From: Candidatus Rifleibacteriota bacterium
GTDB taxonomy: Bacteria; Muiribacteriota; Ozemobacteria; Ozemobacterales; Ozemobacteraceae
Reading direction: 5' to 3'
Assembly: GCA_017417215.1 (NCBI GenBank)
Contig: JAFPZP010000010.1
Location: forward strand, 10,155-74,154
DNA: 64,000 nucleotides
Shown here: positions 1 to 31,636 of the stretch, one piece after another
Position numbering within the stretch: position 1 is the stretch's first letter
How the letters are laid out: each line of letters begins with the position of its first letter
Made by a program: the position numbers and the translations under genes
Notes under the pieces: model-generated
Database searches by the model: none
What the model saw: only the letters and a program-made list of their open reading frames with translations
What the model was told of the DNA's origin: nothing

Positions 1-77
1 TACCAACTACAATAAAAACTCTTCTCTTTTAAGAGAAGCAATTAAAAGTCCGAAGACAGTCTCAACTCTCAATTAAT

Positions 78-205
78 TTAAAGCGGACAGTTGCTTGCTC
101 AACCTTATTCTCCTCCGCGGTCTCTGTTAATTTGTACCTACGAATAAACTTTGAGGGAACGAGCCTTGTGCGGAGAATAGAGGTCTCGCGTCTACTGTCC
201 GCTCA
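78..205 (+). repeat. Copy A of a ~128-bp intergenic repeat element; its inverted partner lies at 12661-12790. An internal stem is possible (gcggacag...ctgtccgc; ccttattctcctccg...cggagaatagagg).
   Basis: Direct alignment of 78-205 with the reverse complement of 12661-12790 gives about 90% identity. Mismatches cluster in the central ttaatttgtacctacgaataaac segment. Partly shared, rearranged motifs continue into the flanks (ctcactcaccacgcc in both). Confidence 0.7.
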
Positions 206-369
206 CTCACCACCAACCACTCACCACGCCTCTGATTGCTACGCAATCAGCCCCCTCAGTCTTTGGCTATTCGCTCTCTGTAGCCAATTAGCACAATCTG
301 TCTGCTTTTTTATTGGGTTTAGGGGGTATTTGATTTCAGGGTGGGGTATTTGCTAGAATATCTGATGTT

Positions 370-2058
370 ATGGATTATTTGACACTAAAAACTCATATTT
401 CTGGATTATCAAAAAGGATAAAGTCAAAGCCAATATTAATCAGGGCTTATGATGTTTCTGGTCGTTCTATTTTTTTGAGACTAAAATTTGATGACTCTAT
501 CCAAGACTTGTGTGTTTGCCTGGATTCTCCAAATCAAGGAATATGGTTGTCTGAGCAGTGTACAGAAGTAGAAAAAAACTCTCTTATAGTCAGAAACATT
601 AACCGGCTTATTATTAATTCCAGATTAGTTTCTGTAGAATTGGCCGGTGATGAAAAAAAAGGTGAATATGACAGGGTTGTTAAACTTCACTTTGTAGCAA
701 TAGACGATTATTTTGGTCATAGAAGTGATTATTATGTTTTTTGTGAGTTTACGGGACGAATATCTGATGTGTTTTTCTGTGATTCTGATTATAAGATATT
801 AGACAGAATTTCTAGAACTTCAAATAATCTAGTTGGTGAAAACTATCGTTTGCCTGATTCCTTTAAATTATTGAATCCAGATGTTGTTGAAGACAAAGAG
901 TTGCTTAAGGCATTTGCTTCTGATTCTGAAGAGTGGGTAAACATAATTGGCTTTCTATCTCCATTAATGGCTAAGGAAATATCTTTCAGAGTAAGTCAGC
1001 TGTTGGGTGGAGATTTGGTTGAAAATAGATTAAAGGTTTTTCGAGAAATATTATCTGAGAGTGGTTCTTTAAAGGCTTATTTATATCAGAAACAAAACAA
1101 GGTATTTGCTCTATCGGCTTATGAATTAAAGCATGTTTCAATGTTAGGAGAGTATGAGAAGAAAGAGTTTGAATCAATAAACGATGCAATGAATTTTGTA
1201 GAAAAAAGCTTGATTGAACCGAAGCGTCTTGAGCAGGGAAAAAAGTTGGCTATTTCCCGTTTAAATAGGAGCTTAAAACAGAAAAAGCAACTTTTAATCG
1301 AGCAGAAAAAACTGAAAGAAAAATATGAAGATTCAGACAAATATCAGAAGCTTGGTGATTTGATAACGGCTAATATTTATCGAATTAAGCCTGGTTCTAC
1401 TTTCCTTGAAGCAGAAGACTGGAATAGCGGAGAACTGGTTAAAATAGAACTTGATCCTTCTAAGACTGCTGCTGCAAATGCAAAAAAGTATTTCAATCTT
1501 TGCAAGAAATCTAAGCGAGGGGTTATTGAGGTTGAAAAACGAATAGAAAGTCTTATTAGTGATATAAAATGGTTTGAAGAGCAGATATGGTTGGTTGAGA
1601 ATGCTGAAATAGAAACCTGGTTACAAATAGAAGAGAATACAAAAACAAATAGAATGACTAGAAGCAAAGAACCGTCTAATAAGAACAAAAATGCTAAAAA
1701 CCCGAGGGTTATGATAAAACCAAGTTTTGAGCAGAATGGTTGCAAATATTATGTTGGTCATAATGCAAAGCAGAATGATTTAATAACTTTTAAAATTGGA
1801 AAAAAGGGTGATATATGGTTTCACGCCAACGATGTTCCTGGGGCTCATGTGGTTTTGAAGAAACCAGAGGGAGATATTAACGAAGAAGATTTATTGGCTG
1901 GGGCAAGGTTTGCTGCTTTAAATTCTTTTGCTAAAAACAGTAGCAAAGTTTTGGTTGATTATACGGATGTAAGTAATGTGAAGCGTATTCCAAACGGTGG
2001 GTTAGGGCAGGTATCATATACGAATCAGCATACTATTGTTGTAGAATTAGGGGATTGA
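370..2058 (+). CDS. rqcH: RqcH/FbpA-family protein with an NFACT-N-like N-terminus, a central coiled coil and a C-terminal NFACT-R/DUF814 domain
   Basis: The C-terminal segment NGCKYYVGHNAKQNDLITFKIGKKGDIWFHANDVPGAHVVLK matches the conserved NFACT-R (DUF814) core of RqcH/FbpA/Tae2 proteins. The protein is 562 aa with a Lys/Glu-rich coiled-coil middle. The stop is TGA at 2056-2058. Confidence 0.6.
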   Translation: MDYLTLKTHISGLSKRIKSKPILIRAYDVSGRSIFLRLKFDDSIQDLCVCLDSPNQGIWLSEQCTEVEKNSLIVRNINRLIINSRLVSVELAGDEKKGEYDRVVKLHFVAIDDYFGHRSDYYVFCEFTGRISDVFFCDSDYKILDRISRTSNNLVGENYRLPDSFKLLNPDVVEDKELLKAFASDSEEWVNIIGFLSPLMAKEISFRVSQLLGGDLVENRLKVFREILSESGSLKAYLYQKQNKVFALSAYELKHVSMLGEYEKKEFESINDAMNFVEKSLIEPKRLEQGKKLAISRLNRSLKQKKQLLIEQKKLKEKYEDSDKYQKLGDLITANIYRIKPGSTFLEAEDWNSGELVKIELDPSKTAAANAKKYFNLCKKSKRGVIEVEKRIESLISDIKWFEEQIWLVENAEIETWLQIEENTKTNRMTRSKEPSNKNKNAKNPRVMIKPSFEQNGCKYYVGHNAKQNDLITFKIGKKGDIWFHANDVPGAHVVLKKPEGDINEEDLLAGARFAALNSFAKNSSKVLVDYTDVSNVKRIPNGGLGQVSYTNQHTIVVELGD

Positions 2059-2086
2059 CTTAAAAGCTTAAGGTGTACTAATATTA

Positions 2087-3658
2087 TTGTTTCAAGCTTG
2101 GAGGTTTCCCTTGTCTAATAATTTACTTAAAACTGAACTTGTTGAATATTTAAAAGAAGTTGAACTCGATGAAGAGCGTGTTTTGGCCAATCTGGTTTTT
2201 GACCCGGGTGTAATCGGGCAGCAGTTATTGGAAAATCATTTTACCATTGAAGATTTTAAAGGCCCAGAAGCCAATCGTGTTCTTTTGGGAACAATATTAG
2301 AAATTATTGAAGATGAAGAAACCTTAAGTCTTCCAAATTTAGTTTCCAGACTGATTAACCAGAATCAGGGAAAAAGAACTAAGCTTGAAGTCGTAGGCGG
2401 CGAAAGCAGAGTTAAGGATTTGATGCTGAATCCATTTTCAAAACCTGGTGTTAAGATGATGGAAGATATCGAACCTCTTATTGAGCAGATTCGAGATAGG
2501 AATATCAGATACGATTCTCATAAGACATTTATTCAATATTCCGAAAAAATAATAGATAATGATAAAGAAGTTTTTGAAGTATTGAGTGAAGGTATACAGT
2601 CGCTTCGTTCCATATTTTTGCAGGGCAGTGCCGGGTATATCAGAGGAATAGACTCTCATATCGATGAAATGCAGGAACTAATCGCAGACAGGCGATATCG
2701 AAAGCAAAGTTATCTAGGACTGAATACTAATTTCCCGATTCTTATGGAAAAACTAAATGGTTTTCAGAAAGAATTTTATCTGATAACCGGTGGGGTAGGG
2801 ATGGGAAAATCTACCTTTGCAACTCAGTTGGCTTGGGATTTAGCAACTATGAATCCAGAACTAACTGTAATTTATTTTAGTCTTGATCTTAATCGTATAG
2901 ATGCTACCTCAAAAATTGTTTCTCAGTGTGGTGAATTACCTATTGATTACGTTAAGAATCCTTATTCTATTCGTGACGATTTGGAAGAACGCCGTTCAGA
3001 AGCTTTGAAAAAAGTTGCTTCTATGAGCAAGAGGTTCATTCTTATTGATGAATCTTCCGGTAGACTTTCCATTGATGACGTAAAAAAATATGTTAAACGA
3101 ACCCGTCTCGAAAGGGGAGGGGAAGTTGCTGTTGTAATAGACCCGCTATATAAGATTCTGATAAGAAATCAACATCATATTGGTTTCAATGAAAAATGTA
3201 ACGTGTTGGCTTCTGAATTAAAGAGTCTGGCGGCAGTAGAGGGTGTTACTGTTATAGCTACGGCAGGTTTGCCAAAAGCTATTAGTAGTCGCAGACCAGT
3301 AAAAGAAGATTTGGAAGAAATAACGGGTTTGTTATATGACCCATATGCTATTTTCTTCTTGTATTGCGATTATTTGAATAACTTTGATACTCCTTTCCTT
3401 GAATGGGAATGGGGTAAAGAAGATTCTTTCATGATTCCGATAACTGAAGCTTTTGTTGCTAAAAATAAAATGGGAACTTCTAATTCGACTATTTTTTATC
3501 GATATTTCGAAGCTTTTTCAAAATTTAAAGAATGTGCTCCGCAAGAAGTTGAAAATTATTCTGCAATGATAGACAATCTTGAACGATTTAAAGAAGTTCA
3601 GGCTAATCAGAATTCAAAACAGCAGAATAGTGGTTCTCACCGTCAGGAGGAATTTTGA
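2087..3658 (+). CDS. dnaB: DnaB-family hexameric helicase, divergent: DnaB-like N-terminal domain plus RecA-like C-terminal domain
   Basis: TTG start at 2087. Walker A is GGVGMGKSTFATQLA. Segments align to DnaB motifs: FSLDL (vs SLEM), VVIDPLYKI (vs IDYLQL), SSRRPVKEDLEE (vs KRPmlSDLRES) and YDPYAIFFLY (vs DADvvmFlyR). The N-terminus (VLANLVFDPGVIGQQLLENHFTIEDFKGPEANRVLLGTILEI) is DnaB-N-like. Confidence 0.55.
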   Translation: MFQAWRFPLSNNLLKTELVEYLKEVELDEERVLANLVFDPGVIGQQLLENHFTIEDFKGPEANRVLLGTILEIIEDEETLSLPNLVSRLINQNQGKRTKLEVVGGESRVKDLMLNPFSKPGVKMMEDIEPLIEQIRDRNIRYDSHKTFIQYSEKIIDNDKEVFEVLSEGIQSLRSIFLQGSAGYIRGIDSHIDEMQELIADRRYRKQSYLGLNTNFPILMEKLNGFQKEFYLITGGVGMGKSTFATQLAWDLATMNPELTVIYFSLDLNRIDATSKIVSQCGELPIDYVKNPYSIRDDLEERRSEALKKVASMSKRFILIDESSGRLSIDDVKKYVKRTRLERGGEVAVVIDPLYKILIRNQHHIGFNEKCNVLASELKSLAAVEGVTVIATAGLPKAISSRRPVKEDLEEITGLLYDPYAIFFLYCDYLNNFDTPFLEWEWGKEDSFMIPITEAFVAKNKMGTSNSTIFYRYFEAFSKFKECAPQEVENYSAMIDNLERFKEVQANQNSKQQNSGSHRQEEF

Positions 3659-5547
3659 TGGAAGGAGAAGTTCTTGACCTATATAATAAGGCAGTTGCCG
3701 CTTACGACAGAGGGTCTTACGAAATAGCTATTCAGGAATATGAAAAGGCCTTAGCGCTTGAACCTGAAAATGTTGATATTTTAGTTAATCTTGGTGCTGT
3801 GTGTCTGCAAAAACGAAAAGTTGATCAGGCGATAAATTATTTCAGCAGTGCTTTAACTATAGATCCCAATAATAGTATGGCTTTGTATGACATAGGAAAG
3901 GCTTATATGTATAAGCAGGATTACAGACTTGCTTATATGGCTTTTCAGCAGGCGTCTGGTCTTTTGCCTGAAGATCTGGAAATTAAGCAGCTCATGGTTT
4001 CTTGTTTGAGATCTTTGGGAAAATATAAAGATGCCGTTGCTATAATGCTGGATAATGTGGAAAAGTTTTCTGGCAATGTTGATGCTTTGATGGAGCTTGG
4101 CGGTGATTTAAAAATGCTTGCCAGATATGAAGAAGCTTTGGAAATATACAGAAAGGCTTCTGATGCTGCTTGCAATTCCATAGAACCATTAAAAGGTATT
4201 TATGACTGTCAGATTCACTTAGGACATAAAGATAAGGCTCAAACTACTTTGAAAAGAGCGATGATGATTGAGCCTTCCAATCAGGAAGTTATTCTAAGGC
4301 TAACAGATCTTTACCTTGAAGAAAATAAGGTTCAGGAAGCTGTAGAACTTATTACCAAAGGTCTTGAAACTATAGAAAGCCCGATTCAGCTTAGAGAAAA
4401 GTATAATGAAATGGTGAGAAAGCTTCCCATTTTGAAAAAGAAGACTTCTCCAAGTAAGTTTGTTCCTGGGCAAAGTTCTCATGAAACAGAAGTTTTTGAT
4501 ATTCTTGATAAGCTTTATGATGGGAAAATGCCTATCGAATCTGCTTTAAATGAACTTGGCATACTTCATAAAAGAGAGCCTCAAGATATTCTTATTGCAG
4601 ATGAATACGCTAATTTGCTTTATCAGACAAGGCAGTTTGAAAAATCTGCGGAAGTTTATTCTGAATTATATCTTGCCAGACCGAACTTCCCTGTTCATAG
4701 AGTTGATTTAGCCAAGTCTCAAGCAATGAAAGGCGATGTGGAAGCTGCTAGAACAACATTGACAGACGCTATCAGAGATCTGGGTCATCAGGCAGAGTTG
4801 GATTTGGCGTTAGTTGAATTGGATTTGCTGGAAAGAGACTTTGAAAAAGCTGGTGCCCGACTTGATATGATAGTTAAGGAATTTCCAGATGATGTTCATG
4901 CTTTATTTCTTTATGCCTATACTGCTTTCAGAATGGATAAAGTTGATATAGCTGAAAAGACTTATGAAAAGCTTTTGGAAATTGCTAGCGGTGATGAAGA
5001 AGTGGCGATGTGGTATTCTCGCTTGGCTATTATGATTGGAAAACCAGAAAAGGCTCTTAAGGTATGGGACACTTTTAATGACGGAATAGATAGCTTTGTT
5101 GAAATAATGTGCCGTATTGAACTGAATATAGCTATGGGTGATACCAGTCAGATAATGAAGCTGCTTTGCAAAATAGGTGATTATAAGCCAAGATTTATAG
5201 AAGACCATTTAATGTTTGGCAAGGCATTTTTCTATGCAGAAGAATTCCCTTCTGCTCAGAGAGAATTTGATACTGTTTTAAGGGTTGAACCTCAGAATGC
5301 AGAAGCATTAGGAATGACGGCTGTTACTTCCTTAATGAGGAATAAAACAGCTCAATTTGCAAGCGTTTGGCAGAGAGCTATTTATTTAGATTCTTTATAT
5401 GCTATTTTGCCAATGATGATATTAAAAAGCTGTATGAAGTTCATTCCAAAAGAAAAACTAAGGAATGAAACCAAAAAGCTTATGAATATTGCTTCGCTTT
5501 CGGCTCCTGATTATTCAAGACTGAAAAGATTATATGATTCTTTGTAG
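3655..5547 (+). CDS. TPR-repeat protein
   Basis: There are multiple 34-aa tetratricopeptide-like repeats (e.g. YNKAVAAYDRGSYEIAIQEYEKALALEPEN, ALYDIGKAYMYKQDYRLAYMAFQQA). It overlaps the dnaB-like stop by 4 nt. The likely ATG is at 3658. Confidence 0.6.
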   Translation: MMEGEVLDLYNKAVAAYDRGSYEIAIQEYEKALALEPENVDILVNLGAVCLQKRKVDQAINYFSSALTIDPNNSMALYDIGKAYMYKQDYRLAYMAFQQASGLLPEDLEIKQLMVSCLRSLGKYKDAVAIMLDNVEKFSGNVDALMELGGDLKMLARYEEALEIYRKASDAACNSIEPLKGIYDCQIHLGHKDKAQTTLKRAMMIEPSNQEVILRLTDLYLEENKVQEAVELITKGLETIESPIQLREKYNEMVRKLPILKKKTSPSKFVPGQSSHETEVFDILDKLYDGKMPIESALNELGILHKREPQDILIADEYANLLYQTRQFEKSAEVYSELYLARPNFPVHRVDLAKSQAMKGDVEAARTTLTDAIRDLGHQAELDLALVELDLLERDFEKAGARLDMIVKEFPDDVHALFLYAYTAFRMDKVDIAEKTYEKLLEIASGDEEVAMWYSRLAIMIGKPEKALKVWDTFNDGIDSFVEIMCRIELNIAMGDTSQIMKLLCKIGDYKPRFIEDHLMFGKAFFYAEEFPSAQREFDTVLRVEPQNAEALGMTAVTSLMRNKTAQFASVWQRAIYLDSLYAILPMMILKSCMKFIPKEKLRNETKKLMNIASLSAPDYSRLKRLYDSL

Positions 5548-5556
5548 GATTTAATT

Positions 5557-7014
5557 ATGGCTAAAAAGATAGAAAAAATAGATTCTAATGATGAAAATAC
5601 TGTTCGTCAGATGATTGCAGATCTTGAGAATATAGAAGAAAATCGATTGAATGATGCTGTCTGCGATATTATAGATATTGGCAGTAAACCAATATTAATG
5701 CTTATAGAAGCTTTACCAGATATGTCTGAAGAAGTTGGCAGCATTGTTGTTCAAAAGTTGGAAGATTTCTTCTATTTCCATCCGGAAAAGGGTGAGAAGG
5801 TTGTTGAAAGATTGAAAAAATCTGTAAGAGAAGCGCCGGAAAGATATAGAGCTGGGTTGTTGTCTGCTTTGTCTGATATTCTTGAAGCAATAGATGAATC
5901 TGGTGAAACTATCAGCACAATGGGTGAAGAAGCTATGTCTGTGCTTTGCTCTAATACTGATATAACTAGAATTGGAAAAGCTATCGAAATTTTGATAAGA
6001 GCTGAAAAGTATGATTCTATACCACATATTATCAAATTAATGACAAAATCTACTGATAAGTTAGATAAATTTGAGTATTATCAATTTATTGAAACTTCTT
6101 TGCTGGCTCTTAAGAGACTAGGTGGGGAAGCGGTTCTTAGATTACTTGTTAATCCTTTATCTGATTCTGCTATTAAACAGCTTAGAATAGAATGGAGAAC
6201 AAAAGAACAAAAACTGCTTGAAGATACATTAATTGCTCTTCAGAAGCTTGATTCTGATTTCGCCCAGGTTATGATTAAGGTAGTTGATTTGTCTGAATTT
6301 AATCTTCCATTTGCTGCTATGCTTAATGAAGGAATAAAGCACAGTGATAAATGGGTAAGACAGGCTGCTGTAGAAGCTATGAGCAAAACTAGTGAAAATA
6401 TGACTCCAGAAGCTCTTTCTAGAATGCTTTCAGATCCAGCTCCAGAAGTAAGACTTATGGCAACTACGTCATTAGGTGCTTTTGATAAAAAACAGACTGG
6501 TGATTTATTATTAGATTTGGCTGGCAGAGAAGAAGAATCGATAGATATAAGACTTAATGCTTTATATGCTTTATATGCTCAAGGAAATTTGGCTGCTTTG
6601 CAGCAATTAGCAGCTAAAAAAGAAAATGAAAAAATAACTGTAAACGCTGAAGGATTGGCGGCCTTGTTGATGCCTCACGAACAAGGTTTACATAAGATGT
6701 TAGATGTTTATATGGCTACAAAAGAAAGTTTGTTGCCAGAAGCAGCACATTATTTGTCTGAATTAACCGTTCCAGAAGACATAGGTGCTATGGTTGCTGC
6801 TCATTCTAAGGGTAATGAAGAACAGCGTGACAAAATGATTAGGTTTTTAAAAGCTTTTGTTGAAAATAATGACGGACCTAAGCTTGAGGCAGCAATGAAA
6901 GCACAGCTTAATGAGGCTGAAAGAAGCGCTTTAAAGAGAATGATTCCTGAAAAGAAGTCTCATGACGAATCGGATGAATGCGATTGCTCTTGTGGTGAGC
7001 ATCATCATCATTGA
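5557..7014 (+). CDS. HEAT/armadillo-like repeat protein with a Cys/His-rich C-terminal tail (CDCSCGEHHHH)
   Basis: Repeated helical HEAT-like units occur (e.g. KWVRQAAVEAMSK, APEVRLMATTSLGAF, IDIRLNALYALY). The protein ends ...ESDECDCSCGEHHHH followed by TGA. Confidence 0.5.
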   Translation: MAKKIEKIDSNDENTVRQMIADLENIEENRLNDAVCDIIDIGSKPILMLIEALPDMSEEVGSIVVQKLEDFFYFHPEKGEKVVERLKKSVREAPERYRAGLLSALSDILEAIDESGETISTMGEEAMSVLCSNTDITRIGKAIEILIRAEKYDSIPHIIKLMTKSTDKLDKFEYYQFIETSLLALKRLGGEAVLRLLVNPLSDSAIKQLRIEWRTKEQKLLEDTLIALQKLDSDFAQVMIKVVDLSEFNLPFAAMLNEGIKHSDKWVRQAAVEAMSKTSENMTPEALSRMLSDPAPEVRLMATTSLGAFDKKQTGDLLLDLAGREEESIDIRLNALYALYAQGNLAALQQLAAKKENEKITVNAEGLAALLMPHEQGLHKMLDVYMATKESLLPEAAHYLSELTVPEDIGAMVAAHSKGNEEQRDKMIRFLKAFVENNDGPKLEAAMKAQLNEAERSALKRMIPEKKSHDESDECDCSCGEHHHH

Positions 7015-7062
7015 GATGTAAGATGTAAGATATAAGATATAAGATAGAAGATAGAAGATAGG
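7014..7062. repeat. Tandem heptamer array: (AGATGTA)2 (AGATATA)2 (AGATAGA)2 AGATAGG
   Basis: This was read directly: seven consecutive 7-mers start on the last base of the HEAT-gene stop codon. Confidence 0.8.
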
Positions 7063-7075
7063 TAAAACTGACCTA

Positions 7076-7140
7076 AAAATAGGACTTTTTTCGTGTTCTT
7101 AGTGGAATATGATTAAGTCCTATTTTTTTTAGCTAAAAAG
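7076..7140 (+). terminator. Inverted repeat aaaataggact ... agtcctatttt followed by a T-run; a possible terminator for the HEAT-repeat gene
   Basis: The 11-bp arms sit at 7076-7086 and 7126-7136, then TTTTTTTT. The loop is long (39 nt), so this is not a canonical intrinsic terminator. Confidence 0.3.
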
Positions 7141-7361
7141 GCATATATTAATTTGTTATCATATAATAGATAATTGAAGTTTTAAAAGTCGCTTATGATC
7201 TGATTTTATTTGTTTTACGTTTCGAATAATAATTATTTAAATTTTGATAACGTTAACAAACAATTATTTATAATATGATAACTAAAACAAAATCATGATA
7301 ACAATAAGTCATATATTAATCTAAATATTGATAATAAGGCTAAAAATAGACGAAAAATGAG

Positions 7362-7512
7362 AATGATGATTAGTGGTAGGTGATTAGTGGTGAGTGTGAA
7401 TGATTTAGTGGTTGGTGGTAGGAAGTTTAGGTGTGAGTGTGAATGATTGGTGGTAGATGGTTGGTGGTGGGTGATGAGTTGGAAGAAGGAAGAAGGGAGA
7501 TGGGAGATGGTT
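7362..7512. repeat. Degenerate GT-rich (CA-rich on the minus strand) low-complexity tandem repeat region, 3' of minus-strand gene 7511-8233
   Basis: Repeated units include gtgattagtgg, gtgagtgtgaatgatt (x2) and ggttggtggt. The minus strand reads caccaccaacca-type motifs, also present at 204-232 next to repeat copy A. Confidence 0.6.
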
Positions 7513-8233
7513 AGGGTTTGATTGTTGCTGAAGATATTGAGCCAGTGCTTGAAGCTGGAGATTGTTTTTGTTCAGAAGTATTATTGTTGTTGCTAGGGGC
7601 TTTAATTTTTATTTTGCCATCTTTATCAGATGTTATTTCAACAGTATCAGAACCGTTTTCTTCGTTTTCGTCATACTCACTCCAGTCACCCCAGGGGTTA
7701 TATTCTGGGTTTGTTGGTTGAGGTGGATTCAAGGCTGCTAACTCAGCTTCTTTGTCTCTTTGTTTCTTCGCTTCAACGCTTGCTGCATATGAAGCAACAT
7801 TGCTTTTTCTTTTGGCTAATAGAGCTTTTTCTGCTTCTTCTTGCTGTTTTGAAATAGCAATATTTGCTTCTTCTTCTAATTCTTTTATTATTGTGCTTTC
7901 TTCACCAAAAGAGAAACTGTCGAAATCCATTCCACCTAGAATCTTTTCGATGTCTTCTTCTTCATCTTCTGTCTTTTGAAGTTTTGGAAAATCTATTACT
8001 CTATTGGCTTTTTCCTTCATGGATTCTGTAGGAACGGGCTCGTAGGAAAACTCTATTGGTTTATAGTTGTAGTAGCCAGAAGTATATGGTGAATTCCTTA
8101 TTTGAGAGTCGTTTTTTCTGTTTGGATAAGGAAAAATGTATCTGTTAATGGTTTGTGATTCTGCAGGAATAGAAAGCAGTAGAAAAAACAGATTTATAGA
8201 TAGAATTTGTGATAAGGAATTGTTATGCAGCAT
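7511..8233 (-). CDS. Secreted low-complexity acidic protein, hypothetical
   Basis: There is an N-terminal hydrophobic signal-like segment (LSQILSINLFFLLLSIPAES). A Glu/Lys-rich middle and an Asn/Ser-rich C-terminus follow. No recognisable catalytic motif is present. Confidence 0.4.
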   Translation of the reverse strand: MLHNNSLSQILSINLFFLLLSIPAESQTINRYIFPYPNRKNDSQIRNSPYTSGYYNYKPIEFSYEPVPTESMKEKANRVIDFPKLQKTEDEEEDIEKILGGMDFDSFSFGEESTIIKELEEEANIAISKQQEEAEKALLAKRKSNVASYAASVEAKKQRDKEAELAALNPPQPTNPEYNPWGDWSEYDENEENGSDTVEITSDKDGKIKIKAPSNNNNTSEQKQSPASSTGSISSATIKP

Positions 8234-9104
8234 ACCACACCACTAAGTTGTCTAAAATTCGGTATTTTATTGCCCCATTTTTGTGTAATGCTGATAAATA
8301 ACCGTTAACAGTGGCTCTGAAAAGGAAATACTGCCACCCATTTTTCTTCATTTCATAATGGCTTAAAAAGCTTTTTACTACCCTTTCCTGGGATTGTGGG
8401 ACTTTTAATAGTCTTCTCATAAATGCAACAGCATTATTAACATGAGTTGAATTGTTTGCCAGCAAGGTAGCGATATTGCTGGTATGGCGAAGATGACCAC
8501 CAACAAAATTTTGAGCTTGAACTTTTTTTAGATTTTCAAGAGTTTGCAGATGAACTAATGGGTCATAATTGAATGGGAGCAGATGTTTTTTAAAGAATAT
8601 GTCTGGAAAGACTGCATCAGCGATAAAAGCTGTTCCGTCAACCAAAAAGCCTTTCTGGTTGATGGAATGACCAGGAAGATCTAATACGTTTATTGTTAAA
8701 TCTTCGATTTTTAGTTCTTTTTCTGTAAATATTTCTGGCTCTGAAGGTAGAGCCATTATGAATCTGTTCATCAAATCCTGGGTTGGAGCTCCAGAAAAGA
8801 GAAGAGCAGCCTGAATAAGAGGATAGCTTATGATAGGGGCTTCAAGAGGTGCTGCAAGTATTTTGCAGTTTGTTGTTTTTTGAAGAAAGTTATTGCCACC
8901 AACATGGTCTGCATGAGAATGGGTGTTTAAAATATATGATATTTGGTATCTGTAATCTGATAGTAGTTCATAGATTTTTTTTGCGTAGTTGCTGTCTATT
9001 CCTGAATCTACTAAAATAACACGACTTTTTTCTAAGGTAATTATACCAACGTTTACAGGACCAGGAATATAGTAAGTTCTGTCTGAAAGTCTTGTTAATT
9101 CCAT
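8223..9104 (-). CDS. MBL-fold metallo-hydrolase
   Basis: The motif HSHADHVGG (HxHxDH) and downstream His/Asp ligands (LPGHS) are present. Length is 293 aa. Confidence 0.7.
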   Translation of the reverse strand: MELTRLSDRTYYIPGPVNVGIITLEKSRVILVDSGIDSNYAKKIYELLSDYRYQISYILNTHSHADHVGGNNFLQKTTNCKILAAPLEAPIISYPLIQAALLFSGAPTQDLMNRFIMALPSEPEIFTEKELKIEDLTINVLDLPGHSINQKGFLVDGTAFIADAVFPDIFFKKHLLPFNYDPLVHLQTLENLKKVQAQNFVGGHLRHTSNIATLLANNSTHVNNAVAFMRRLLKVPQSQERVVKSFLSHYEMKKNGWQYFLFRATVNGYLSALHKNGAIKYRILDNLVVWYAA

Positions 9105-9125
9105 AGATACCTCTATTTCTTCAAT

Positions 9126-9578
9126 TTATGAGGCTGTGATTCGTTTGGATTCCCCCATAACCACGTAGCCTTCATTGCAGTTACCTAAAACTGTAATTAT
9201 ACAGTCAGGAGTTCCTGTGAAGTTAATTTTAGGAGCTAATACTTCTATATAGTAAGGATTGCCTTGATATGGCGAAAACTGTGCTTTGTATATCCAGGCG
9301 TTAACTGGTTCAAAACCGTCTACTTGTAACTTAATACGTAAAAACTTGAAAACTTCTCCTCCTTTAACCATTTTAAAAGCAGGATGCCATGGTAAAGGTT
9401 CTGTTGTGAAGTCTGGAGAAAGAACAACAAGAGGTTTTTCTAGCAGAATATTGATAGTTGCGGCTTTGCAACAGGTTACTTCTGGAAAGCACTCAGCAAA
9501 AAATGGCATTTGTTCTTTTACGGTATTAGAAGATTCACCGATTCCTTTTTGTATTTTTCCTTTAATCTGTGATGCCAT
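9126..9578 (-). CDS. Hypothetical protein
   Basis: A 150-aa ORF with reasonable coding potential. No motif was recognised. Confidence 0.35.
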   Translation of the reverse strand: MASQIKGKIQKGIGESSNTVKEQMPFFAECFPEVTCCKAATINILLEKPLVVLSPDFTTEPLPWHPAFKMVKGGEVFKFLRIKLQVDGFEPVNAWIYKAQFSPYQGNPYYIEVLAPKINFTGTPDCIITVLGNCNEGYVVMGESKRITAS

Positions 9579-9678
9579 TTATTTTGCTCCTTCAATTCAT
9601 TCCTCTTTAAGCATAGAGCAAAGATTCTCTTTTGTAAACTATTATTTTATGTACCATCAGAGCAAAACTCTTTTTGTG

Positions 9679-9757
9679 CAGTCTACACATTGTCATAAAC
9701 GTATAGCTTTCAGAGCAAGCTCATACGCTATACGTTTTATGACAAATGTGTAGACTG
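9679..9757. promoter_or_regulatory. Near-perfect inverted repeat with 29- and 31-nt arms and a 19-nt spacer, in the divergent intergenic region upstream of rph
   Basis: Left arm cagtctacacattgtcataaacgtatagc at 9679-9707. Right arm gctatacgttttatgacaaatgtgtagactg at 9727-9757. Only two extra bases break perfect complementarity. No T-run follows on either strand. Confidence 0.5.
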
Positions 9758-9839
9758 TTAACTAATTCCATAAAAAAAATTGGCAATAAATTATAAAAAT
9801 GTTATTCTGCAAAGAATAAACAATATTTTGGAGGCTATT

Positions 9840-10577
9840 ATGGTTAGACATGATGGACGTGCTATTGATCAGCTTAGGGAAGTAAGTATTCAGACCGGTT
9901 ATGTAAAATATCCTCACGGTTCTGTGCTTATATGCTTTGGCGATACAAAAGTTATTTGTACTGTTCAAGTTGAAGAAAGTGTTCCTAACCATGTTAAAGC
10001 AAAAAGCGAAACTATGGGTTGGCTGACAGCTGAATATGCTCTTATGCCGGGTGCCGGCCTCAGAAGAAGCGAACGTGCTGGTTATGGCAATGCTACCGTT
10101 AAGGGAAGAGCCCATGAAATTATGCGTTTAATCGGTCGTTCTATGCGTGCTGCTGTAGATTTGAACAAGCTTGGTCCTAGAACATTAATGGTTGACTGTG
10201 ATGTTTTACAGGCCGATGGGGGAACAAGAACTGCTTCTATTACAGGTTCTATGGTAGCTCTTGAACTTGCTATAAAGAAACTTATGGCTGAAGGCAAACT
10301 TACAGAAAACCCATTAATGCATAGAATCGCTGCTGTAAGTGTTGGCGTAAACCAGGGTCAGACAATTCTTGATCTTGACTATATTGAAGATTCTCATGCT
10401 GAAACAGATTTAAATCTTGTTATGACTGAAGATGGCGGATTTGTTGAAGTTCAAGGAACAGCAGAAAATGGAGCAACATATAATCATGCTCAGTTAGAAG
10501 AAATGCTTAGACTTGGCGAAGGCGGAATCAAGAAGCTTTTTGAAATTCAGCGCAAAGCTTTGGAGTCAGCCAAGTGA
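9840..10577 (+). CDS. rph: Ribonuclease PH
   Basis: MVRHDGRAIDQLREVSIQTGYVKYPHGSVLICFGDTKVICTV is the canonical RNase PH N-terminus. A GGAGG RBS sits 6 nt upstream of the ATG at 9840. The ORF track's 9780 start is an upstream in-frame extension. Confidence 0.9.
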   Translation: MVRHDGRAIDQLREVSIQTGYVKYPHGSVLICFGDTKVICTVQVEESVPNHVKAKSETMGWLTAEYALMPGAGLRRSERAGYGNATVKGRAHEIMRLIGRSMRAAVDLNKLGPRTLMVDCDVLQADGGTRTASITGSMVALELAIKKLMAEGKLTENPLMHRIAAVSVGVNQGQTILDLDYIEDSHAETDLNLVMTEDGGFVEVQGTAENGATYNHAQLEEMLRLGEGGIKKLFEIQRKALESAK

Positions 10578-11164
10578 ATATTTGGGTAGCTACACAGAAT
10601 TCGCATAAAGTAGAAGAAATAAGCAGTATTCTTTCACCAATAACAATAAAGAGTTTTCTTGATTTAAAGAATCCTCCAGAAGTTGATGAAAATGGTTCTA
10701 CTTATTCAGAAAATGCTCTAATAAAAGCAAAAGCACTTTATGACATTGTTCATGAACCAGTATTTGCAGATGATTCGGGCTTAGAAGTCGATGCATTAGA
10801 CGGAAAGCCTGGAATTCATTCTGCAAGATTTTCTGGTCCAGATACAAATCATGCCAGAAATGTGGCTAAAATGCTGGAAGTTTTGAAGGATGTTCCTGAC
10901 GAAAAGAGAACTGCCAGATTCAGATGCGTGATTGTTTACATAGATGAGGCTGGAAAAACTCATGAATTCAGTGGCACTCTGGAAGGGAAAATTGGTTATA
11001 AACCGTTGGGAAATGGCGGTTTTGGTTACGACCCTATTTTCATGTTGCCTGAAAGAAATTGCTCTGTAGCACAGTTACCTGCTTCTGAAAAGAATGTTAT
11101 AAGCCACAGGGCTTATGCTTTAGAAAAACTCAAAGAGTATTTTAAAAGCATAAAACTGATTTAA
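10574..11164 (+). CDS. rdgB: Non-canonical purine NTP pyrophosphatase (RdgB/Ham1 family)
   Basis: IWVATQNSHKVEEI ... FADDSGLEVDALDGKPGIHSARF ... GYDPIF are Ham1/RdgB signature segments. The GTG start overlaps the rph stop. rph-rdgB is a common conserved pair. Confidence 0.85.
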   Translation: MNIWVATQNSHKVEEISSILSPITIKSFLDLKNPPEVDENGSTYSENALIKAKALYDIVHEPVFADDSGLEVDALDGKPGIHSARFSGPDTNHARNVAKMLEVLKDVPDEKRTARFRCVIVYIDEAGKTHEFSGTLEGKIGYKPLGNGGFGYDPIFMLPERNCSVAQLPASEKNVISHRAYALEKLKEYFKSIKLI

Positions 11165-11189
11165 CCAAAATTGTTGTCGAGGTATCTGT

Positions 11190-11720
11190 ATGGCTCAGAT
11201 TATTCCTTTGTTTAAACGTATGGCTCAGAAAGAGCCAGACAAAGAAAGCTGGGAAGGTCGCAAGGAAAAGTTTTTTTCTTTTTCAATGGGCGATAAAGCT
11301 TTTGTTGTTCCTGCGGTAGATGTTGCTGAAGTAGCTGCTTTTTCTTCTTTGATAGAGATTCCAACGAATTCAGAAATAGTTTCTGGTGTTGTTAATGTTC
11401 GTGGAACCGTTATTCCTATTATAAATTTAAGAAAAAGACTTGGCTTGCCAAAAGACTTTGAAATTGAATCAAAGACAAAGGCTATTTATTTTAAGCCAAA
11501 GCAGGATTTCTTTATCGGAATGATAGTTGACAACATTGATTTCCGATTGACAGAAGGTATTATTCTTCCCAAATCAGCTTCTTTAGGTGATTCTAATAAT
11601 AACGAAGAAGTAATAATGGAAGAAAAGGATACTAATTGTCGTTTTAAAGTTTTCTTAATAGATGATTTGGTTAAGCCAGATGAATTTGAAGAAGTACAAA
11701 AAGTTTTGGAAGCTTTTTAA
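11190..11720 (+). CDS. cheW: CheW-like chemotaxis coupling protein
   Basis: FVVPAVDVAEVAAFSSLIEIPTNSEIVSGVVNVRGTVIPIINLRKRLGL matches the CheW domain core. Confidence 0.75.
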   Translation: MAQIIPLFKRMAQKEPDKESWEGRKEKFFSFSMGDKAFVVPAVDVAEVAAFSSLIEIPTNSEIVSGVVNVRGTVIPIINLRKRLGLPKDFEIESKTKAIYFKPKQDFFIGMIVDNIDFRLTEGIILPKSASLGDSNNNEEVIMEEKDTNCRFKVFLIDDLVKPDEFEEVQKVLEAF

Positions 11721-11755
11721 TTAGAAGTTTCTCGTGAAACATAAAGGAAGTAAAA

Positions 11756-12553
11756 ATGTCAAAAATTCTAGAGTCAGTTAAATCAACAATTCCAGCCAAA
11801 GCTTACGATTGTAAGCTTTCTCATGCGGCAGCCTGTGTTCATATGACAATGATAAAGAGTGTAAGACTGGGTTCCTGCATGACTTTGAGCGATGAAAGAG
11901 TTTTCAATTTCAATCAGATTCAGCCAGTATCACATTTAGGCGATATTGAAAACTTTAGTTTATCCCAGATTCTTGAATGGACAGAATCTTGCCAGGGAAT
12001 AGAACGTTCATTTGGATTTGCTGCTTTAAATGGTGCTGTTGAATTAAAAGACAGATATTTCCTGGGAAATGCTCTAGACATAGCTGTTAAGCTTGGTAAG
12101 GGCAAGAATATTTCGATGGTTGGGCACTTTTCTCATGTAGAAAAGTTCAGACAGGAAGCCAAAAATTTCTGGATATTGGAAAAACGTCCACATGCAGGTG
12201 ATTTGCCTGCTGAAGAATATGTAAATGTGATACCAGAAAGCGATGTGGTTGTTGCTACTGGGGTTACTTTTTTAAATGATACTCTAGAAGGTCTTTTGAA
12301 GGTAAAGAAGCCAGGTTCTATCTTTATAGTTGTTGGTCCTTCAGTGCCTTTAAGCCCTGTTTTATTTGACTATGGTGTTGATATTGTCGGAGGGGCTTAT
12401 GCTGAAGATGAAGCAGAGGTATATAAAAAGATTTTGCAGGGTGCTTCTCCTCGACTAATAAAGGAATGTCTTAGAACTGTTTTGATGCCTAAAGATTCGT
12501 CTTTAATGACTGGGTGCGAAGAAATAACACCAATTATAAAAAAAGAGATATAG
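11756..12553 (+). CDS. DUF4213/DUF364-like Rossmann-like domain protein (putative heavy-metal-chelation family)
   Basis: The length (265 aa) and pattern ...ISMVGHFSHVEKF...ESDVVVATGVTFLNDTLEGLL...GSIFIVVGPSVPLSP... resemble DUF364 proteins. The assignment is from memory. Confidence 0.4.
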   Translation: MSKILESVKSTIPAKAYDCKLSHAAACVHMTMIKSVRLGSCMTLSDERVFNFNQIQPVSHLGDIENFSLSQILEWTESCQGIERSFGFAALNGAVELKDRYFLGNALDIAVKLGKGKNISMVGHFSHVEKFRQEAKNFWILEKRPHAGDLPAEEYVNVIPESDVVVATGVTFLNDTLEGLLKVKKPGSIFIVVGPSVPLSPVLFDYGVDIVGGAYAEDEAEVYKKILQGASPRLIKECLRTVLMPKDSSLMTGCEEITPIIKKEI

Positions 12554-12660
12554 AGTAAAGAGCCAAGCGGAGCTTGGCGTGGTGAGTGAGCTACAATGCG
12601 TCAGAACGAACAGCAGATGTAAGACCTTCACTTAGAGAGTACAGAGCAAAAGAGCGACAG

Positions 12661-12790
12661 AGCGGACAGTAGACGCGAGACCTCTATTCTCCGCACAAGG
12701 CTCGTTCCCTCAAAGATTATCCGAAGGTAGAAATTATCAGAGACCGCGGAGGAGAATAAGGTTGAGCAAGCAGACTGTCCGCCTTTAAAG
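12661..12790 (-). repeat. Copy B of the ~128-bp repeat element, inverted relative to copy A; it lies in the 3' region of the minus-strand M42 peptidase gene
   Basis: The reverse complement aligns to 78-205 at about 90% identity. See copy A for details. Confidence 0.7.
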
Positions 12791-12798
12791 GAATTGAG

Positions 12799-13842
12799 TT
12801 AGGGCTTAACTGGGCGCAAGTCTTCTTTCCCAGTCATTGACGCAAGGGTTTCGGCTATTAGTTCTACTGTTTTATCTAAGTCGCTTATCTCTGCCATTTC
12901 TGAAGGTGAATGCATATATTTTACAGGCAGCGAAACCAGTGCAACAGGAACACCTTCTCCTGAATACATAATTTTATCGGCATCTGTATGTGTACGGTCA
13001 GCAGTTATTTCTAACTGATAGGGTATTTTTTTCTTTTTTGCAGCTTTTTCAAAAATTTCATCTATTTTGCGGTTTATCGGGCTTCCAATAGATAATGTGC
13101 CACCCTTCCCAAGAGTGACTTGACCGTTTGAATCGTTAGCGCCAGGATGCTGACTATCAAATGTTACGTCACAGGCTAGGGCCATATTGGGTTTGATTCT
13201 AGCGGCAGCAGTAAAGGCACCTCTGGAATTGGTTTCTTCACCGGTTGTACTGATAGCGTAAACACCAACATTCAGTTTTCTCTTGCTAAGCTTTTTAATA
13301 ACTTCGGCTATTATATAAGCGCCAGTCTTGTTGTCTAAGGCTTTTGAAACAATTTTGTTTTCACCAATTATCTGGGGTTCACTTTCGTAAACAGCATAAT
13401 CACCGATTCTTACGAGTTTTTTTAGTTTCTTGTCGTCATTATAACCGCAGTCTATAAAGCAGTTTTCAATAGTAGCATTTGCTTCTTTTTCTGCTGTAGT
13501 CTGTATTATTCCTTTAATGGTCTTACCGCTGTAACCATAAATATCTACTTTCATTCCTGGTAGCATTTTAGGATTAAGCCAACCTGAGTTTGTAAACCAG
13601 ACATAACCTCTTTCGTCAACTTTGGTAACAATCATGGCTATTTCATCTATGTGTGCAGCAAGCATAACTTTGAAAGAAGCTTTTGGGTTTAAAATTCCAT
13701 AAGCGTTTCCGACTTCATCTGTTTTTACTTCTGCAAATTTTTTAACATAATCCAACCAGACTTTTTGGGCTCTAGATTCATCTCCAGAAGGGGATGGGGA
13801 ACGCAATAAATTGAACAAAAAATCCTTTGAAGTTTTTTCCAT
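12799..13842 (-). CDS. M42-family aminopeptidase (FrvX/glutamyl aminopeptidase-like)
   Basis: AHIDEIAMIVTKVDERGYVWF and GGTLSIGSPINRK are typical of M42 peptidases. Length is 347 aa. Confidence 0.7.
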   Translation of the reverse strand: MEKTSKDFLFNLLRSPSPSGDESRAQKVWLDYVKKFAEVKTDEVGNAYGILNPKASFKVMLAAHIDEIAMIVTKVDERGYVWFTNSGWLNPKMLPGMKVDIYGYSGKTIKGIIQTTAEKEANATIENCFIDCGYNDDKKLKKLVRIGDYAVYESEPQIIGENKIVSKALDNKTGAYIIAEVIKKLSKRKLNVGVYAISTTGEETNSRGAFTAAARIKPNMALACDVTFDSQHPGANDSNGQVTLGKGGTLSIGSPINRKIDEIFEKAAKKKKIPYQLEITADRTHTDADKIMYSGEGVPVALVSLPVKYMHSPSEMAEISDLDKTVELIAETLASMTGKEDLRPVKP

Positions 13843-19247: not shown

Positions 19248-19816
19248 ATATAAACAGAAGAAAAGCGGTCACTTTGGTTGAAGTTGTTATATGTGTCGTT
19301 CTTTTTGCAATGCTGATAGCTGGTTTAATGAGAGTATTCAGTTCCGGTATGAAGACATCTGTTAAAGGTCTTGCTCATCAGGCAAATATGGAAACAGCTT
19401 CTATTATCATGTCTCAGATTGAATATGACTTGTTGAGAGCAACCAATATTCTACAACCAGATATAAATCTCTCTGAAGATTTTGATAAAGCGATTTGGAA
19501 TTTTTATTACGGCGATTCCGAAATTAACTCACCAGCAACAGTAACTTATACAAGATTAGATAATGGAGTAGGAGTAAGCAGAGAAGTTAAACTGGCTGAT
19601 GGCAAAACTATGAGTAATATTTTTGCCAGGGATCAGAAAGTTGAATTGAGTTTTAAAAATCTAAGAGTTAATAACGGTACTTCTGATGTTCCTTTTTATA
19701 AGCATGCTATGCTTGTAAAGCTGACTGTTTCAACAAGAGATTCTAAAAAGGTAGGTACTAATCCAGAAGAAGCTTTTTCTTTAAGCAGACTAATAATTAT
19801 TCGCGGACACGAGTAA
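19244..19816 (+). CDS. Prepilin-type N-terminal domain protein (pseudopilin-like)
   Basis: RRKAVTLVEVVICVVLFAMLIAGLM is a type IV pilin-like N-terminus (TLVE). It overlaps the previous gene by 4 nt. Confidence 0.5.
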   Translation: MNINRRKAVTLVEVVICVVLFAMLIAGLMRVFSSGMKTSVKGLAHQANMETASIIMSQIEYDLLRATNILQPDINLSEDFDKAIWNFYYGDSEINSPATVTYTRLDNGVGVSREVKLADGKTMSNIFARDQKVELSFKNLRVNNGTSDVPFYKHAMLVKLTVSTRDSKKVGTNPEEAFSLSRLIIIRGHE

Positions 19817-19857
19817 TTAGTAAGTATCTTAACCTAAATTTACATTAAATAAATTGC

Positions 19858-20460
19858 ATGATAGAAATGCTGGCAGTAAAATCCGGCATCATGCTAAATT
19901 TATATCAGAAGATACAGAAGATAGAAACAATACAGGCTGAAGCTGATAAAGCAACCAAGGCTTTTAAGAATAGATACCAAATTGATTGTATTGAATACTG
20001 TGCTGAATGTTGCAAATACAATGATATTAATGCTACTCCACTAGAATTTCTTCCTTTGGCATGGCATTTTTATAAGTGTGGCAAGTTGGAAGAACTATTT
20101 GAGAGAGTTTCTAACTATAATAAACCTCAATGTATTTTTTCTGTTTTTGAAAATGGAAGATGGGGATGTTGTGTTTATCCTACTAGAGGTTTAATTTGCA
20201 GACTTTTTGGATTTGCTTCAGTTGAAGATAAACATGGAAAAGCTTGTTTTGCTGCTTGTCATAGTTTAAAAGAAAAGAATCCTGAGTTGGTTCAGCATAT
20301 TTGCCAAATGATTAATACTGGGGGAAAGACACCTGTTATTGCTGATTTTTATAGAAAACTAAATATGCTGGATTTAAATCTTGGAGATGAATTGGTTCCT
20401 ATTAATCAAGCTATTAAGGAAGCTTGTGAGATAATATATATGCACGAAGCTTATAAGTGA
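19858..20460 (+). CDS. Cysteine-cluster protein, possibly of the YkgJ/UPF0153 (CxxCxxCC) putative zinc/iron-chelating family
   Basis: CIEYCAECCKYN plus downstream CxxxxC and CxxAC clusters (GRWGCCVYPTRGLICRLFGF...ACFAACH). Confidence 0.3.
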   Translation: MIEMLAVKSGIMLNLYQKIQKIETIQAEADKATKAFKNRYQIDCIEYCAECCKYNDINATPLEFLPLAWHFYKCGKLEELFERVSNYNKPQCIFSVFENGRWGCCVYPTRGLICRLFGFASVEDKHGKACFAACHSLKEKNPELVQHICQMINTGGKTPVIADFYRKLNMLDLNLGDELVPINQAIKEACEIIYMHEAYK

Positions 20461-20473
20461 GAATAAAAGAGTT

Positions 20474-20508
20474 ATAAAAAAAGCCTGCTTAATAGCAGGC
20501 TTTTTTTT
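20474..20508. terminator. Bidirectional rho-independent terminator between convergent genes
   Basis: An A-run, then stem agcctgct with loop taat and agcaggct (20482-20501), then TTTTTTTT. Confidence 0.6.
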
Positions 20509-20797
20509 AAATCATTTCCTTGAGGGCAAGATTTATTATCTTCATACCTTCGCGGATTTCCTGTTTTCGGTATTCTTTAACCCATTCTTTGAGGTTTTCA
20601 TATTTCTTTGTTTCTGTTACTACAAAGAAAGTTGTGTTATCGCCTGGCCAGATATCGTTGCCGAATTTCTTCCCGCCACCTTCTCCAGAACCGTTAACCA
20701 ATGGAATCTGAGTGAAGTTAGTAATTTCATTCTTTTTAAACTGCTGCATTACATCAGCACCCATTGTGGTACTGCATACTATAAAGAAAAATTCCAT
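20507..20797 (-). CDS. Small hypothetical protein with a PII-like secondary-structure pattern (possibly DarA/DUF970-like)
   Basis: It is 96 aa. A beta-alpha-beta...GGGKKFGNDI...NTTFFVVTE pattern resembles PII-like c-di-AMP receptor proteins. This is a weak call. Confidence 0.25.
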   Translation of the reverse strand: MEFFFIVCSTTMGADVMQQFKKNEITNFTQIPLVNGSGEGGGKKFGNDIWPGDNTTFFVVTETKKYENLKEWVKEYRKQEIREGMKIINLALKEMI

Positions 20798-20873
20798 TAT
20801 CTATTTACTCCATTTTTATACTTTTAACAAAGTTGTATATTTTAATATAGCAATTAATGTTAAGAAACTTTTT

Positions 20874-20949: not shown

Positions 20950-20977
20950 TATAAATTATATACACTTTTTTCTGTAT

Positions 20978-31563: not shown

Positions 31564-31636
31564 AATATAGAGTAATAGAGCTTGGGGGAAACCTAAAAAA
31601 GGCACTTGTACTGATTACAATCTAGTGTTATTATAA

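Follow-up and report, generated by a model that had tools for sequence, protein, structure and literature searches.

Two copies of a hairpin-forming repeat, here called A and B, are found in inverted orientation about 12.5 kb apart in a 64,000-nt stretch of contig JAFPZP010000010.1 from Candidatus Rifleibacteriota bacterium (the window; positions refer to this stretch unless another locus is named). The arrangement raises the question of whether the pair delimits a segment that moves or inverts as a unit, or whether the two copies are separate members of a repeat family. With moderate confidence, we interpret A and B as independent members of a new, lineage-restricted, non-coding and non-autonomous family of intergenic hairpin repeats in a narrow rumen clade of 'Candidatus Riflebacteria', probably recognised as a folded single strand and copied in trans. 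The intervening 12.5-kb block is ordinary chromosomal DNA.

The two copies and their family

A repeat search of the window detects inverted arms at 92–204 and 12660–12772, i.e., 113 nt without gaps that are 96% complementary and 12,455 nt apart, which bears out the report of two inverted copies in an earlier note on this DNA. The pair is far beyond chance, since no other inverted pair there exceeds 54 nt, at 70–85%. In a gapped alignment the identity extends over approximately 80–206 versus 12658–12791 with five substitutions and one indel, all confined to the apical part of the hairpin or located just 3' of the outer stem, and includes perfect stretches of 35 nt and 55 nt. The earlier note was right about the similarity but put the identity at ~90%; the measured value is ~95–96% over ~124 nt.

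The core of copy A (82–203, plus strand) is a 122-nt imperfect hairpin consisting of an outer stem P1, a small P2, a 12-bp P3, P4 and an apical hairpin, and that of copy B (12661–12784, minus strand) is a 124-nt hairpin of the same kind. The two score 165.2 and 163.3 bits, respectively, with a covariance model of the family (R1), and they are the only matches to R1 in the window. The fold proposed in the earlier note holds up in calculation: the outer stem, (A)GCGGACAG(U)/(A)CUGUCCGC(U), comprises 10 bp and the inner stem, ACCUUAUUCUCC/GGAGAAUAGAGGU, comprises 12 bp, and copy A folds into a rod-like hairpin with a minimum free energy of −45.7 kcal/mol (z = −3.9 relative to shuffled sequences). 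The opposite strand of copy A yields −44.8 kcal/mol (z = −4.2). The GC content is ~50% in both copy regions compared with ~35% in the window.

Both copies are intergenic. Copy A is ~165 nt from rqcH (open reading frame (ORF) 370–2058, with NFACT domains), as had been claimed, and is situated upstream of a promoter-like site of that gene at 330–359. Copy B had been assigned to the 3' region of the M42 peptidase gene, which is incorrect: the M42 ORF occupies 12799–13842 on the minus strand with its stop codon at 12801–12799, and the core begins 16 nt downstream of that stop codon, inside a 245-nt convergent spacer between the M42 gene and a DUF364 gene (11756–12553, plus strand).

The repeat occurs in many further places. 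A 23-mer from the 3' arm, GGGAACGAGCCTTGTGCGGAGAA, was used to scan a collection of species-representative genomes, and all 39 exact matches are in three rumen metagenome-assembled genomes (MAGs), namely RUG334 (29 matches), 'Candidatus Riflebacteria' Rumen_Coassembly_mag_344 (8) and SRR12081303_bin.101 (2). Many of these matches are at contig ends, as expected because the repeat breaks short-read assemblies. The search was widened to viral contigs and metagenomes with a looser two-gap pattern, the metagenome counts being lower bounds. Pattern matching gives at least 130 copies overall, of which 124 full-length copies represent 111 distinct sequences. The model R1, built from 31 copies, confirmed 66 forward-strand matches at 125–169 bits among loci L039–L118 (all of them JAEEG* rumen metagenome contigs) and 31 further matches among L119–L158. 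Counting copies and looking for intergenic bias had been suggested in the earlier note, and the outcome is a multicopy family with ~122 of 130 copies between genes. The alternative raised there, a simple local duplication involving only two sites, is contradicted by dozens of dispersed copies and by covariation in the outer stem.

The family has no recognisable relatives in the other collections searched. The two-gap pattern has no match in viral contigs, and blastn finds none in phages, plasmids or 5,426 complete E. coli genomes; a phage or plasmid origin is consequently rejected. Rfam 15 gives no match at the gathering score in the whole window and nothing relevant at E ≤ 10 in the two copy regions, and ARAGORN detects no tRNA or tmRNA. 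A small peptide or type I toxin was also considered and rejected; the core has only an 18-codon frame, which is broken in other copies by indels and apical variation.

Conservation and pairing of the core

A hand-drawn structure of 39 base pairs was scored on an alignment of 112 distinct copies. Standard pairs make up 96.6% of the cells, compared with 40–52% in controls where the 3' partners were slid by 1–3 columns. Changes on both sides of a pair are found in 13 pairs, and for four of five measures none of 500 shuffles reaches the observed value. The covariation is concentrated at the outer end of the hairpin, where 8 of the 10 outer-stem pairs exhibit double changes, for example GCGGACAGU/ACUGUCCGC, AAUGACAGU/ACUGUCAUU and GCGGUCAG/CUGACCGC. 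Hardly any variation is seen in the small internal loops or in the inner helices (ACCUUAUUCUCC/GGAGAAUAGAGGU and CCGCGGUCUC/GAGCCUUGUGCGG), and half of the 20 inner pairs never vary. Column entropy shows the same pattern, being near zero in the inner columns and higher in the outer stem, the apical loop and the flanks. The terminal outer stem is the most variable paired region, and the two arms are not symmetric in sequence. The 5' arm is also invariant in the set selected solely by the 3'-arm 23-mer, so that the invariance of the interior is not only an artefact of the search pattern. In a divergent intact copy (L026:5244–5383, 88.6 bits) the fold is retained by compensation within the inner helices (G-C to A-U, C-G to U-A and A-U to U-A).

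The pairing also differs between the strands. Among single-sided changes, G.U cells number 92 compared with 30 A.C cells; G.U is the commonest form in four pairs, two of which are G.U in all 112 sequences. The forward strand is predicted to be the more stable in 88 of the 112 copies, by 2.6 kcal/mol on average. The excess of G.U over A.C and the better folding of the forward strand indicate that pairing matters on one strand.

Among more than 100 copies, variability at different positions spans over an order of magnitude, which disfavours both neutral decay following a recent burst and plain concerted evolution. The core is under selection, be it for the host or for the element's own propagation. 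Mutual information was also used to look for additional pairings or a pseudoknot, and these were rejected: the top non-helix column pairs, 64/77 and 27/30, are not Watson-Crick and reflect subfamilies. In three different genomes (L011:2680–2850, L022:7606–7721 and L159:19000–19135) the core is interrupted at the same position, after CTCCTCCGC, by a small inserted hairpin repeat with the form '...GTCATTGCGAGCC..GGCGTGGCAATCC'; since this repeat replaces the apical part, that part is dispensable.

Genomic context and mosaic spacers

The intergenic position of ~122 of 130 copies was assessed relative to ORFs of at least 110 codons. Among 86 fully classified sites, orientation with respect to the flanking genes is even (26 tandem-anti, 23 divergent, 20 tandem-co and 17 convergent), and the neighbours are ordinary genes, including those for SpoIID, LuxC/E-like proteins, Rnf, type II secretion ATPases and aminotransferases. 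Clustering of the 923 ORFs from all loci revealed no recurrent or transposase-like partner. An autonomous parent element was sought in the form of arms split by a gene and of recurrent neighbours, and was not found at these loci; the largest ORF cluster consists of pilin-like paralogues and another of an unknown 226-aa protein. In the three MAGs, which are incomplete, each 3'-arm match has its 5' arm within ~130 nt or has lost it at a contig end. No transposase is present in the ~1.2 Mb of loci sampled, and no RAYT gene was seen adjoining the 130 copies. Tandem clusters of cores occur at L014, L038, L090 and L122.

Signals expected of a transcription unit are rare around the core. A sigma-70-like site within 200 nt upstream and in the core's own orientation was found for 1 of 87 non-redundant copies, and the promoters that are seen near copies are those of adjacent genes and face away. 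A terminator-like site within 300 nt downstream is present for 6 of 83 copies, and in 12 of 83 the terminator of the upstream gene is located just before the core. Together, the even orientation, the scarcity of own promoters and terminators, the ordinary neighbouring genes and the position of copy A ahead of the rqcH promoter-like site disfavour a 5'- or 3'-untranslated-region element as well as a conventional small RNA gene. A stand-alone small RNA gene was rejected on the same counts of promoters (only sigma-70-type promoters being scored) and terminators and for lack of a fixed orientation. The scaffold of a guide RNA with its guide, as in TnpB- or IscB-like systems, was rejected too; the core is flanked by repeated modules and not by unique spacers, and there is no such gene nearby.

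Comparison of corresponding sites among relatives reveals both filled and empty ones. The window is empty at 62186–62216 (a 34-nt spacer), where L105 contains a 330-nt mosaic with a core between flanks that are 91–96% identical; it is also empty at 31564–31594, where L035, L080 and L148 are filled. At another site L036 is filled and L054, with flanks 96–97% identical, has a different mosaic that includes only a 5'-arm fragment. The copy B site lacks a core in four relatives whose M42 proteins have 94, 88, 84 and 79% amino acid identity; three of their spacers (199, 648 and 225 nt) consist of tandem arrays and the fourth is 86 nt long. No direct repeats flank the cores. Between L035 and L080 the genes are 94% identical and the core 100% identical, and no alignment of the flanking modules is possible. 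In a relative whose RqcH is 72% identical there is a decayed relic that retains a 5' arm and one subfamily's 3' module along with a small inserted repeat, so that the family is older than the narrow clade in which intact copies are found. Two comparisons were set aside. The segment L015:1130–1529 matches L127 at 92–100% over the core and 290 nt downstream between genes that are 70–85% identical, which could equally be due to chimeric assembly or recent exchange and was not used as evidence of selection; an apparent rearrangement at the core between L148 and L080 was not used for the same reason.

The spacers themselves are mosaics of small repeats. The modules that flank the core include G-poor tandem arrays of 7–9 nt (TCTCAATTC, CACCNAC/CTCACTC, GCTCTNNN, CTTCYAAC and ATCTTMT), sequences of the GTCCCACAG type, the hairpin GCCAAGCTTCGCTTGGC, a 78-nt palindrome GTCTACCCATTGTCATAAACGTATAGC...GTAGAC and a module ending in AAGTCCGAAGAC. 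They combine in many ways across loci and are also found without the core, including at 7014–7060, 7360–7510 and 20872–20951 of the window. Strand-asymmetric 7-nt arrays occupy the same three intervals and 27788–27819, with the units AGATATA (6.7 copies), GGTGRTK-type (the reverse complement of the CACCNAC module), TTAGAGA facing TCTCTTA in inverted orientation, and AATTCCT; similar arrays fill the spacers of all relatives examined and resemble cyanobacterial STRR repeats. The 78-nt palindrome, GTCTACCCATTGTCATAAACGTATAGC-TTTCAGGGCTAAAGCCCATAC-GCTATACTTTTTATGACAAATGTGTAGAC with GTAG-containing ends, constitutes a second repeat family that is often found beside the core composite (L072:6300–6400, L090, L116, L117, L135 and many others, all outside the window). 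A two-hairpin module, GTCCTAAAGCCyCTCCTTGAGGAGrGGTG[variable hairpin]CGGrGTGGTGACCGAAC, in which the second hairpin covaries, is present at L015:999–1044 and in L053, L080, L127 and L148. Its similarity to Rfam whalefall-1, a motif whose function is unknown, is weak (19.5 bits compared with a gathering score of 37; E = 0.025).

Modules of this kind surround both window copies. On the 5' side of copy A (45–81, plus strand) the end of a recurrent module, ...TTAAAAGTCCGAAGAC at 45–57, is followed by the TCTCAAT-type leader CTCAACTCTCAATTAATTTAA. The motif AAGTCCGAAGAC directly precedes the core composite in at least 11 other loci, and leaders of the TCTCAATTC type are present in many copies. A module ending in ...GGGGATTTTTGAGAACTTTGCCAAGCAGTAGAAAGTTAAGTCCGAAGACTGT often abuts the core composite on the 5' side, as in the window at 45–57 and in L005, L040, L061, L075, L076, L113, L126, L144 and L157; the window has just the last 12–17 nt of it, after a hairpin at 21–38 that resembles a minus-strand terminator. 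The 3' flank of copy A (204–312, plus strand) consists of a CAC-rich heptamer module (204–230), the hairpin CTGATTGC-TAC-GCAATCAG (232–250), the module GGCTATTCGCTCTCTGTAGCCAATTAGCACAATCT (265–299) and a T-run, and this order of modules is repeated in L007, L010, L016, L021, L026 and L050. Copy B has the TCTCAAT-type leader CTCAATTCCTTTAA (12785–12798, minus strand) between the M42 stop codon and the core. Its 3' flank (12535–12660, minus strand) comprises a GCTCT-type module (12633–12660), CTCACTCACCACGCC (12576–12590), the hairpin GCCAAGC-TCC-GCTTGGC (12562–12578) and a T-rich tail that reaches the end of the DUF364 gene; it includes a terminator-like site, and its modules recur at other loci. 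The two copies have CTCACTCACCACGCC (217–230, and 12590–12576 on the minus strand) and GCTCT-type motifs in common in their flanks. The shared, rearranged flank modules described in the earlier note are therefore real, but where the note saw a hint of a larger composite element, they belong as independent members to a wider range of modules that make up mosaic spacers.

The genes of the 12.5-kb block are rqcH, a DnaB-like ATPase (below the NCBIfam cut-offs), TPR and HEAT repeat genes, two unknown ORFs, an MBL-fold gene, rph, rdgB, a CheW-like gene and the DUF364 gene. Pfam and NCBIfam searches of all block ORFs detect no recombinase or transposase and confirm the earlier description of mostly core genes (dnaB-like, rph and rdgB) without a recombinase. 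The strand on which most block genes lie is also the one that carries the majority of the window's genes. The RqcH of the window is 100% identical to a protein of a 'Candidatus Riflebacteria' MAG at NCBI. The earlier preference for a repeat family over a mobile island was well founded, given the dispersed and intergenic copies and the lack of a recombinase in the block. Elsewhere in the window, a triplet array at 56523–56593 (CGG in 22 copies, rich in GGC and GGT) is located inside ORF 56429–58633 and probably encodes a Gly-rich low-complexity stretch.

Competing explanations and related repeat systems

That the inverted pair marks an invertible 12.5-kb segment or a composite element is very improbable. 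The perfect stretches shared by A and B are long enough for rare RecA-dependent exchange, and inversions have occurred in the neighbourhood among relatives, i.e., of 9772 to ~19800 in SRR12081303_bin.101 and of 7511–9640 in L167. However, the observed inversion end points are in mosaic spacers (7014–7511, 9578–9780 and ~19800–21115) and not at cores. The junction M42|DUF364-CheW-rdgB-rph is identical in L162, L163, L165 and L167, which have no core there, and L050 is colinear with 60–9470 of the window at 92–95% identity across copy A into rqcH-DnaB-TPR-HEAT; among these five loci neither both orientations nor the block at another site was found. The absence of a recombinase and the strand of most block genes also argue against a switchable segment. 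The 12.5-kb inversion contemplated in the earlier note thus has no support for this pair; homologous recombination between the two copies is possible in principle but was not observed.

A functional structured RNA family is the foremost of the alternatives, although we consider it unlikely. Such RNAs would use the core as a ribozyme, a scaffold for protein binding or some other device, with the outer stem as its closing helix, and the copies would be expressed alone or in the transcripts of neighbouring genes. In its favour are an RNA-like pattern of conservation, in which the internal loops and helices stay invariant and the closing stem covaries, the excess of G.U over A.C on one strand with two invariant G.U pairs, the retention of the fold in the divergent L026 copy, the GC content of the element in an AT-rich genome, and the orthologous site where an identical core is found between unalignable flanks. 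On the other hand, there is no orientation bias, and 23 of 86 sites are between divergent genes; promoters and terminators are scarce, and terminators of upstream genes often precede the core; presence varies among close relatives; the 12-bp inner helix is invariant and not covarying; and no Rfam family matches even at E ≤ 10. Slightly less likely still, in our judgement, is that the core is more than parasitic DNA and forms the folded substrate or scaffold of an undescribed system, either a new class of structured RNA that binds protein or processes itself, or a single-stranded DNA (ssDNA) hairpin handled by a new single-strand-specific enzyme, which has been amplified in rumen Riflebacteria and acts with the 7–9-nt arrays and hairpin modules to speed the turnover of spacers beyond that of genes. 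A little more doubtful again is an element serving the host in cis as a terminator, an insulator or a stabiliser of mRNA 3' ends, roles that have been proposed for REP/BIME and ERIC sequences. The hairpin is very stable (approximately −45 kcal/mol on either strand), copy B is located just past a stop codon in a convergent spacer and is followed by a terminator-like hairpin, and 12 of 83 copies are just downstream of the terminator of the upstream gene. Yet neither gene 3' ends nor convergent spacers are enriched in copies, which are just as frequent in divergent spacers; many copies are upstream of a neighbour's promoter and outside obvious transcripts; the sites are dispensable in close relatives; and a plain barrier needs no invariant asymmetric core of ~95 nt.

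Our preferred interpretation, namely a non-autonomous hairpin repeat copied in trans, can be described as follows. The unit would be a rod-like hairpin of 122–124 nt in which the asymmetric inner core of ~95 nt is nearly invariant and the 10-bp outer stem needs only to pair. The invariance of the asymmetric core together with a paired outer stem on one strand suggests recognition of the folded single strand by a factor encoded elsewhere, and the family probably propagates via a single-stranded form. We infer mobilisation in trans, and an ssDNA rather than an RNA intermediate. Copies with an intact core and a paired outer stem may be copied into new spacers by a route resembling REPIN/RAYT or IS200/IS605-type mobilisation of ssDNA hairpins, and would land in, and reshuffle with, fast-evolving mosaic spacers made of 7–9-nt arrays and small hairpin repeats. 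Alternatively, the copies could spread by recombination between tandem arrays or by template switching among them.

Several observations weigh against this interpretation. The filled and empty sites show no clean insertion or target-site duplication; the whole spacer differs, so that the data fit transposition no better than they fit spread through recombination or template switching between mosaic arrays. Chimeric assembly across shared repeats may affect some of the comparisons, which draw on contigs from short-read metagenomes. The sampled loci yielded no mobilising enzyme. The scans of the collections demanded an exact match to 22–23 conserved bases, so that the breadth of the family is underestimated and conservation at those bases is forced. 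Subfamilies exist, and covariation cells are therefore not independent events. Finally, an invariant asymmetric interior with variable ends is the reverse of the pattern in REPINs and in miniature inverted-repeat transposable elements (MITEs); a pattern of this sort is closer to that of a functional RNA or of a site bound by protein.

The family is like REPIN, ERIC or BOX elements in kind and is a member of none of them. As with REPINs, the unit is ~100 nt long, non-coding and extragenic, occurs in tens to hundreds of copies, forms a long imperfect hairpin with compensatory changes, lacks its own transposase and target-site duplications, and can be found in tandem clusters. In REPINs the ends, i.e., inverted REP sequences, are conserved while the spacer needs only to pair, and the elements are thought to move via a single-stranded intermediate recognised in trans (PMC3116915). 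The Riflebacteria repeat differs in having a variable outer stem, an invariant interior and asymmetric arms, and in the absence of a conserved GTAG-type end and of a RAYT gene near the copies. A MITE was rejected because the terminal stem is the most variable paired part and there is no target-site duplication. As to the alternatives offered in the earlier note, a structured RNA or a MITE/REP-like element, the repeat is REP-like in kind and not a MITE, and a structured RNA is made less likely by the lack of orientation bias and of Rfam matches and by the few promoters and terminators.

Other well-studied repeats share individual traits with the family. ERIC/IRU sequences are enterobacterial imperfect palindromes of ~127 bp that have been reported mainly within transcribed regions. 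The Riflebacteria repeat is similarly a rod-like imperfect palindrome (122–128 nt) that is intergenic, occurs in both orientations and varies greatly in copy number among related genomes, but it belongs to a different host phylum, has no sequence similarity to ERICs (no blastn match in the E. coli genomes) and in many cases lies outside obvious transcripts. ERICs are regarded as non-autonomous elements (PMC3116915). The pneumococcal BOX, RUP and SPRITE repeats are lineage-restricted, abundant and structured intergenic sequences interpreted as parasitic, and BOX elements have a modular A-Bn-C build in which sub-units are repeated in tandem, and form extensive secondary structure (PMC3049150). 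Lineage restriction, abundance and modularity are shared with the present family, whereas the modules and sequences are different, RUP is a classical MITE derived from an insertion sequence, and the tandem sub-units here are 7–9-nt arrays outside the hairpin that are also found without it. Mosaic intergenic regions are known from the BIMEs of E. coli, the NIMEs and Correia elements of Neisseria and the heptamer arrays (STRRs) of cyanobacteria. Here too the spacers combine several types of small repeats and vary among strains, and the strand-asymmetric heptamer arrays resemble STRRs, but the components are unrelated in sequence, and REP and dRS3 units are far shorter than the hairpin core. The conserved terminal inverted repeats and the TA duplication of Correia elements are both absent from the Riflebacteria repeat.

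The analysis removes a false lead, in that the locus contains no mobile island and there is no evidence for a switchable 12.5-kb segment, and brings to light a repeat family that had not been described before, in a candidate phylum without cultured members. The conservation of the family is unusual for a bacterial interspersed repeat, which makes it a tractable case for studying how such elements are recognised and copied. Its spacers are mosaics that are fully replaced between strains whose genes are 94–97% identical, and this replacement, together with the location of copies at contig ends, is relevant to the assembly, binning and strain typing of rumen MAGs. Should the family have a partner enzyme or a function as RNA, its more than 100 natural variants could serve to define what that enzyme or function requires.

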